Shown piece after piece: positions 19,422 through 19,619 of a stretch of DNA of 28,808 nt. The position numbers were made by a program, and so were the translations under genes. How positions within the stretch are numbered: the stretch's first letter is position 1; each line of letters begins with the position of its first letter. Below the pieces are notes generated by a model. That model saw only the letters and a program-made list of their open reading frames with translations, was not told the origin of the DNA and did no database searches. Origin of the DNA: Escherichia coli (GTDB lineage Bacteria; Pseudomonadota; Gammaproteobacteria; Enterobacterales; Enterobacteriaceae); assembly GCF_003334315.1 (NCBI RefSeq), contig NZ_QOWR01000061.1, one strand, 5' to 3'.

Positions 19422-19619
19422 CTTGTATTGATTAGCAGTCAAAATCATTGAAGAACATTTCACTCGCTAAAGGCAACATTATGTATCTTCAATTTATTAA
19501 GTTAAAAACAGCTCAGCTTCTGTAAAGTTTTTATATATCAGTTTTATGAGAATCATTTTACATAAGCCTGTAATAACAGGAAGGCAACAATCTCGTTCTC
19601 AACTCTATGGAGATTAGTT

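Follow-up and report, generated by a model that had tools for sequence, protein, structure and literature searches.

In the leader of yihQ, the sulfoquinovosidase gene of Escherichia coli, we found a small inverted repeat which is ordinary by itself and whose conservation between lineages is beyond chance. Judged by alignment, the block around this palindrome is a footprint specific to the Escherichia-type cassette, and a conserved footprint of this kind makes a function plausible. We tentatively read the palindrome as a weak leader stem-loop in the operon mRNA; between a small RNA stem-loop and a regulator binding site, the stem-loop is slightly more likely. The original prediction had proposed an operator overlapping a promoter: its idea of a functional element remains plausible in view of the conserved footprint, whereas an operator placed over a promoter is not supported by what we observed.

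Locus and gene order

The window, i.e. the whole stretch of 28,808 nt that we analysed, is the sulfoquinovose (sulfo-EMP, yih) cluster of E. coli K-12. When 281 nt surrounding the palindrome were used as a query, they showed 100% identity to K-12 records, in which the RefSeq names of the two neighbouring genes are yihR and yihQ. The genes yihU, yihT, yihS, yihR, yihQ, yihP, yihO and ompL follow each other in this order on the + strand, with one common direction and short gaps; yihV and yihW (csqR) are on the - strand (Table 1).

In K-12 on sulfoquinovose (SQ), ompL, yihO and yihP showed a log2FC of at least 5 in RNA-seq, and yihP and yihQ were found to be up by qRT-PCR (PMC12608037). Binding sites of the SQ-responsive repressor are reported in the literature at yihU/V and yihV/W. 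From the single gene direction, the induction on SQ and the location of the repressor sites, yihQ would mainly be read through from the yihU promoter, and the repeat would therefore be transcribed.

Positions 28437-28808 of the window hold an IS1 copy of 372 nt, with 100% identity to the IS1 of E. coli EC24. It abuts the 5' part of yihL (ORF 27739-28395), a GntR-family regulator gene, so that the start and the promoter of yihL appear displaced in this strain. We also noted REP-like G+C-rich inverted repeats (GCCGGATGCGGCGT / ACGCCTTATCCGGC and others) at 25303-25368, in the convergent gap between ompL and yihN.

Table 1. Features of the yihR-yihQ region, with coordinates in the window
Feature	Position	Strand	Basis
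yihU	15395-16291	+	
yihR, sulfoquinovose mutarotase gene (RefSeq aldose-1-epimerase), upstream neighbour	18519-19421	+	ORF list, RefSeq of identical records
Scar of the loss of a tauE/safE-family gene (876 nt in relatives), interior without clear homologue	19422-19563	+	alignment to tauE-carrying loci
tauE ribosome-binding site and first ~8 codons, probable remnant	19465-19500	+	29/36 bases identical to L084 3948-3985
14-codon ORF opened by the tauE remnant, MYLQFIKLKTAQLL	19481-19525	+	
23-codon ORF spanning the palindrome, MRIILHKPVITGRQQSRSQLYGD; stop 2 nt before the yihQ ATG	19546-19617	+	
Conserved block AAR-CCTGT-AAYA-ACAGG-A-N-GG-M-A, 5' edge of the yihQ leader	19564-19586	+	alignments of K-12-type, O55/GF4-3-type, L116 and L084
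Perfect 5-4-5 inverted repeat CCTGT-AATA-ACAGG, CCTGTAATAACAGG	19567-19580	.	direct reading
Variable leader part, from the palindrome block to the ribosome-binding block	19587-19601	+	pairwise identities of alleles
Conserved ribosome-binding block ACTCTATGGAGATTAGTT (GGAG 19609-19612) before the yihQ ATG	19602-19619	+	nearly invariant, all alleles
yihQ, sulfoquinovosidase gene, downstream neighbour	19620-21656	+	ORF list, RefSeq, GH31 Pfam homologues

The inverted repeat and its chance level

The palindrome is present as had been claimed, about 40 bp before yihQ, and the spacer that holds it, from the yihR stop to the yihQ start (19422-19619, 198 nt), is indeed AT-rich, with a G+C content of 0.31. 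Its arms, CCTGT and ACAGG, are fully complementary, the 4-nt centre AATA has no symmetry of its own, and 39 nt separate its end from the yihQ ATG.

Since the window contains 33 perfect 5-4-5 inverted repeats and at least one such repeat appeared in 31% of 2000 shuffles of the spacer, the palindrome is no more than chance as a pattern in a single sequence. With loops of 0-10 nt the window has 416 repeats, and 95% of the 2000 shuffles gave a 5-bp repeat with some loop in this range. The hairpin energy of the palindrome (-4.6 kcal/mol) ranks 18 among the 33 repeats of the window.

We did not find a second copy in the window at up to 2 mismatches; up to 3 mismatches, 5 sites were counted for 2.0 expected, which is not beyond chance. 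Among 3294 genomes, the palindrome block has one place per genome, and this single copy rules out a dispersed repeat (REP/BIME-like or a transposon end) as well as a regulon motif. A literature search for the sequence string found no match; the element appears to be undescribed, though of a familiar kind.

The 23-codon ORF that runs over the palindrome was considered as a conserved upstream ORF and rejected, as it exists in the K-12 type only. It has no obvious ribosome-binding site and the start codon is missing in O55-type alleles; for these reasons it is probably not a gene.

Conservation of the palindrome between lineages

We assembled 63 sequences representing 18 distinct alleles and 3-4 deep lineages; they come from complete genomes and from a scan of metagenomes for which the anchor was the yihQ start and not the palindrome. 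In this set 9 of the 10 arm columns are invariant, and the lone arm change, ACAGG to ACGGG, occurs in 1 of the 18 alleles. By comparison, 25 of the 47 other leader columns (Fisher one-sided p=0.03) and 30 of all 83 other non-coding columns (p=0.0015) are invariant. Pairwise comparisons are given in Table 2; the sequence flanking the palindrome has about 50% identity between lineages, and between the genes of L084 and those of E. coli about half of the 4-fold degenerate sites differ.

Table 2. Pairwise identities in and around the palindrome
Pair	Palindrome	Palindrome to ribosome-binding block	40 columns upstream
K-12 vs O55:H7	14/14	11/23	16/39
K-12 vs L084	13/14	16/21	12/37
O55:H7 vs L084	13/14	14/23	18/39

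The palindrome lies 39-41 nt before the yihQ ATG in all alleles, with the intervening sequence turned over. In E. coli strains that carry a tauE gene (see below) it is found between tauE and yihQ, 40-41 nt ahead of the yihQ start, with the sequence CCTGTAATAACAGG in O55:H7, as in K-12, and CCTGTAACAACAGG in GF4-3 and L084. From these alignments, a small conserved element would mark the 5' edge of the yihQ leader with or without tauE upstream.

The block is not present in the homologous tauE-yihQ spacers of Salmonella, Citrobacter sedlakii, Superficieibacter, L086 and L093, and the palindrome is missing from the yihR-yihQ (or yihS-yihQ) gaps of other genera that bear the cluster, e.g. Citrobacter youngae, Kluyvera and Pantoea. 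The original prediction had tied a function of the repeat to its conservation across genomes with SQ clusters: the repeat is kept in all Escherichia-type cassettes but missing from the SQ clusters of other genera.

A lost tauE/safE-family gene in the yihR-yihQ spacer

A TauE/SafE gene (PF01925, 291 codons) is intact between yihR and yihQ in loci L024, L084-L090 and L093; its 876 nt were located at 7001-7876 in both L094 and L095 and at 3964-4839 in L084. In 1297 of 5426 complete E. coli genomes (O157:H7, O55:H7, GF4-3 and others) an intact gene is found at this place, under the RefSeq name 'sulfite exporter TauE/SafE family protein'. The K-12-type 198-nt spacer is present in 2650 of the 5426, and the remainder are without this part of the cassette. 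The yih cassette is present in E. coli in three forms, not two, and we found no mention of tauE in those papers on the E. coli cassette that we consulted.

All the relatives with an E. coli-type YihR (69-85% identity), namely Salmonella enterica, Citrobacter sedlakii, Superficieibacter and several metagenomic contigs, have tauE. Because the gene is there in every outgroup with this type of yihR, its presence is ancestral and K-12 carries a deletion. K-12 can be aligned with tauE-carrying alleles up to 19429 and again from 19563/19564; the palindrome is at the first base of resumed homology, the deletion having ended 3-4 nt before the element. As judged by this alignment, the palindrome is older than the tauE deletion. 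By origin, the AT-rich spacer is no regulatory intergenic region but the remnant of the loss of a tauE-family gene.

Inside the scar, the probable remnant of the tauE start corresponds to the surroundings of the tauE ATG in L084, the nearest relative, with the order kept, in a weak match (E=0.025 in a small database). The interior of the scar at 19501-19562 gave no significant match to any locus compared.

K-12 and O55:H7 have 98.2% identity over the whole of yihR and 96.2% over yihQ. Their identity is only 91.5% in a 130-nt alignment that joins the last ~120 nt of yihR to the initial 8 nt of the spacer, and about 50% from the palindrome to the ribosome-binding block, where K-12 is nearer to the otherwise distant L084. 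As the segment ~19300-19700 is a mosaic in which the K-12 leader is nearer to L084 than to O55:H7, the alignments suggest that the scar allele entered K-12 by recombination from another lineage.

In other genera (Citrobacter youngae, C. werkmanii, Salmonella arizonae, Kluyvera, Pantoea, Budvicia and others) YihR is 54-62% identical to the E. coli type, YihS, YihQ and YihP are 80-92% identical to those of E. coli, and the yihR-yihQ (or yihS-yihQ) gap is about 20-65 nt. By sequence identity, yihR is divided into two classes, of which the E. coli-type class co-occurs with tauE. Enterobacter, Pectobacterium and Rahnella have no yihR between yihS and yihQ. The genera with a short gap carry another conserved motif just upstream of the yihQ ribosome-binding site, ATTACCGAATTACCCTAC, with a TTACC direct repeat; we found it in L004, L005, L013, L015, L017 and L020 (about 40 nt before the yihQ ATG) and also in L011, L012 and L022, with the variant CTTACCCTACAAC in Kluyvera and Pantoea. 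This motif is missing in E. coli.

In tauE-carrying loci, we also observed a G+C-rich hairpin of 7-9 bp on the 3' side of the tauE stop (L094 7877-7910; L088 ~4873-4893; L086 ~3019-3044; L093 ~2770-2798). The stems differ by genus (TGCGGGT/ACCCGCA, GCGCTACT/AGTAGCGC, CGTGCGCTG/CAGCGCACG, TTATGCGCT/AGCGCATAA) and have no clear U tract; such a hairpin may stabilise the mRNA or terminate transcription in part. K-12 lost it together with tauE in the deletion. In O55:H7 RM12579 (L094 4729-5971), yihS is annotated as a frameshifted pseudogene and the other parts of the 11-gene cassette are intact.

Promoter and regulator motifs in the spacer

Consensus scans of the K-12, O55:H7-type and L084 spacers gave no sigma-70-like promoter on the + strand. 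The best -35/-10 candidate found by hand, ATGAGA-17-TGTAAT, exists in the K-12 type only, has no A at position 2 of the -10 and turns into TGTAAC at the -10 in alleles with an AACA loop; between lineages, the DNA that precedes the palindrome shows no homology. The position that had been proposed for the palindrome, overlapping a promoter, therefore finds no support in any of the three lineages, and a promoter plus operator was rejected, the hand-found candidates being without key -10 bases or not conserved. Kaznadzey et al. (2018) listed a PlatProm candidate promoter for yihQ, without coordinates, and argued for independent transcription of yihQ; their report contains no experiment on the yihR/yihQ region.

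TGTCA or TGACA motifs are absent from 19422-19619 versus 4 in the yihV-yihU region (15234-15394), including TGTCA-TAAA-TGACA. This agrees with the claim that the palindrome is unlike the TGTCA-type palindromes near yihU, and, at the level of the motif, speaks against a site for CsqR (DeoR family). Compared by eye with the consensus sequences, which provides leads only, the spacing or the half-sites are unfit for sigma-54, LexA (CTGT-N8-ACAG), CRP, FNR, TyrR and Pho boxes. No intrinsic terminator was found in the K-12 spacer on either strand, and no terminator-like tail follows the palindrome on the + strand; tauE-carrying alleles gave only a minimal match on the - strand.

Natural variants within E. 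coli

By allele-specific search among complete E. coli genomes, the K-12 42-mer allele was found in 2359 genomes, a 6-nt duplication inside the loop (CCTGTAATAACAATAACAGG) in 160, and the A>G change from ACAGG to ACGGG (CCTGTAATAACGGG) in 109. The two altered alleles represent about 10% of the K-12-type genomes, and yihQ is annotated as intact in the examples of both. In addition, the loop change T>C (AATA to AACA) is present in two lineages.

Most alleles keep the arms of the dyad and their 4-nt spacing. The duplication moves the DNA half-sites from 4 to 10 bp apart; the ACGGG allele breaks an arm, which on the + strand turns a U-A pair into U·G and on the - strand creates a C·A mismatch. All three kinds of variant keep the RNA hairpin of the + strand (the loop-expanded allele still folds, at -3.8 kcal/mol), and the duplication and ACGGG alter a DNA dyad of fixed spacing. 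The fit to a dimeric operator is consequently poor, since yihQ is intact beside both of these changes.

In E. coli EC24 (L001 2288-3001) an IS1 follows a truncated yihS and ends 10 nt short of the ATG of yihQ. With this insertion yihR, the scar and the palindrome are gone; yihQ is still annotated as intact.

Folding of the leader RNA

When 8 diverse alleles were submitted to RNAalifold, the consensus structure was exactly the 5-bp hairpin of the palindrome. All 5 pairs are kept in 8/8 alleles, with one change from U-A to U·G. Two-sided compensatory changes were found in 0 of 13 pairs, with a covariation term of 0.03. In context, the pair probability of the four inner pairs is 0.13-0.59, depending on the extent of the flanks folded; the MFE fold of the spacer does not include the hairpin, and the spacer in its entirety is no more stable than its shuffled versions (z = -1.35). 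No Rfam covariance model matched 19300-19750 on either strand at E-values up to 1, and a known Rfam RNA family was rejected for this region.

Possible functions of the element

In the leader stem-loop reading, a long + strand transcript yihU-T-S-R-(tauE)-Q-P-O-ompL, started at the CsqR-controlled yihU promoter, would include yihQ. In that transcript, the repeat would fold into a stem-loop of 5 bp, 39-41 nt ahead of the start codon of yihQ and directly 3' of an AU-rich stretch, and could form a local structural boundary at the translation-initiation region of yihQ. The stem-loop may shield a processed yihQPO-ompL segment at its 5' end, or it may insulate the ribosome-binding region of yihQ from the upstream sequence. 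We infer that the genes are co-transcribed, that the hairpin folds in the cell and that it influences stability or translation. In favour of this reading are the island of conservation formed by the palindrome, the hairpin kept by all three kinds of variant and recovered by RNAalifold, the constant distance to the ATG, the lack of a promoter-like site on the + strand among genes of one direction, the response to SQ of the genes downstream, and the end of the K-12 deletion just short of the element. Against a stem-loop stand the low stability and modest pair probabilities of the stem, its absence from the MFE fold, the lack of compensatory changes and of an Rfam match, the independent transcription of yihQ argued by Kaznadzey et al. 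(2018), and the absence of the element from other genera with the same gene order; the hairpin gives no account of the conserved flanks (5' AAR and 3' A-N-GGMA), and arms that are conserved as sequence are equally compatible with a protein site.

Only slightly less likely is that the element has no function at all and is a chance 5-bp palindrome in a little-mutated AT-rich leader. Palindromes of 5 bp are expected by chance, and with only 3-4 deep lineages and a segment that is a recombination mosaic (the K-12 leader is nearer to L084 than to O55, though the genes are 96-98% identical to O55) the seeming conservation could come from few lineages, from recombination of cassette alleles or from a constraint on the block unrelated to its symmetry. 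The same explanation would accommodate the p value of only 0.03 against the neighbouring leader columns, the altered alleles and the EC24 insertion that leave yihQ intact, and the lack of the element in other genera. It accounts poorly, however, for a block that agrees at 14/14 or 13/14 positions between lineages when the flanking non-coding sequence agrees at ~40-60% and 4-fold sites at ~50%, and for the p value of 0.0015 against all other non-coding columns. Moreover, the palindrome is an island parted from the ribosome-binding block by a diverged stretch, which a single recombination tract would not yield. A DNA operator for a dimeric regulator other than CsqR, giving separate control of the sulfoquinovosidase and transporter genes, is unlikely, although the dyad is perfect, its arms are conserved as sequence without covariation and the adjoining conserved bases suggest a sequence-specific contact surface. 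Its GT-N4-AC core has the spacing of GntR/HutC-type operators, the GntR-family gene yihL is about 5 kb off and has its own palindrome, TGGTTTAAACCA, upstream in O55:H7, and the yihQ promoter predicted by Kaznadzey et al. (2018) would suit such an operator. But no lineage has a promoter-like site and the upstream sequence is not conserved; 160 genomes carry a fixed insertion of 6 nt between the arms and 109 have the arm mutation; the flanks are asymmetric; no second genomic copy, no further match within the window and no literature match for the sequence were found; CsqR-type motifs are missing from the spacer; and the likeness to the yihL palindrome is limited to GT-N4-AC.

A broader proposal, in which the block is the DNA or RNA recognition site of a factor controlling yihQ-yihP-yihO-ompL apart from CsqR, has a slim chance of being right. 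It would make the block a second point of control, peculiar to the Escherichia-type cassette and kept through the loss of tauE, with YihL, encoded next to the cluster, as one candidate factor; in that case the alleles with the 6-nt duplication and with ACGGG would represent natural regulatory variation. Finally, we regard as very improbable a weak intrinsic terminator on the - strand that would stop antisense transcription entering from yihQ. A stem followed by a T-rich tail is seen in O55:H7 (CCTGTTATTACAGG TTTAATTAAT) and in L084 (CCTGTTGTTACAGG TTTTAACTAA), and the scan scored both as terminator-like, but a 5-bp stem with 3 G-C pairs is far weaker than working terminators, the K-12 tail is CTTATGTAAA with an empty terminator scan, and the ACGGG allele has its C·A mismatch on precisely this strand. 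We also know of no antisense promoter there, which counts against a terminator.

If the element works, be it as the leader stem-loop that we prefer or otherwise, it would explain the expression of the entry half of sulfoquinovose catabolism (the glycosidase, two permeases and the porin) relative to the core enzymes, a question left open by the work on CsqR. The context of the element is weightier in practice: the model cassette of K-12 is a derived form that lacks an exporter gene of the TauE/SafE type. About one in four complete E. coli genomes, O157:H7 and O55:H7 among them, retain this gene intact, as do relatives in Salmonella and Citrobacter. With K-12 derived in this way, its assigned transport steps may not be representative of E. 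coli as a species. Two forms also exist of the 'long' cassette that was described in 2025 (PMC12608037).

Comparison with known systems

Leader and intercistronic stem-loops are well known: the 5' hairpin of the ompA leader shields the mRNA from RNase E, and an intercistronic stem-loop acts as a stabiliser in malE-malF. Like them, the palindrome lies in an apparent operon transcript, where it follows an AU-rich stretch and precedes a cistron by a fixed distance, and its stem is kept while the sequence and length of the loop change. Unlike them, it has only 5 bp and -4.6 kcal/mol, shows no covariation and is predicted from sequence, whereas the known stems are longer or G+C-richer.

The CsqR (YihW) operators belong to the same cluster and share the 5-4-5 layout and an A/T-rich centre (TGTCA-TAAA-TGACA). 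Their arms are TGTCA/TGACA, in contrast to the CCTGT/ACAGG of the palindrome, and they are multiple and located at promoters, whereas the palindrome is single and without a promoter.

GntR/HutC-type operators are palindromic with a GT-N4-AC core. The palindrome has this spacing and an A/T centre, and a GntR-family gene is nearby, but only four bases are shared, the centre is AATA/AACA and not T-TA-A, and the length of the gap between the arms is polymorphic. In O55:H7, the perfect palindrome upstream of yihL (L102 1917-1928) is 14 nt before the yihL start and is a plausible candidate for an autoregulatory operator of the GntR-family regulator YihL.

The post-tauE hairpin is, like the palindrome, an inverted repeat of this intergenic region. 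It differs by stems of 7-9 bp and changing sequence (Salmonella GCGCTACT/AGTAGCGC; L086 CGTGCGCTG/CAGCGCACG; E. coli O55-type TGCGGGT/ACCCGCA) and by its place, 17-21 nt past the tauE stop in L086, L088 and L093 and within ~10 nt of it in O55-type alleles. Both repeats are present in tauE-carrying alleles of E. coli, which rules out that the palindrome is homologous to this hairpin.
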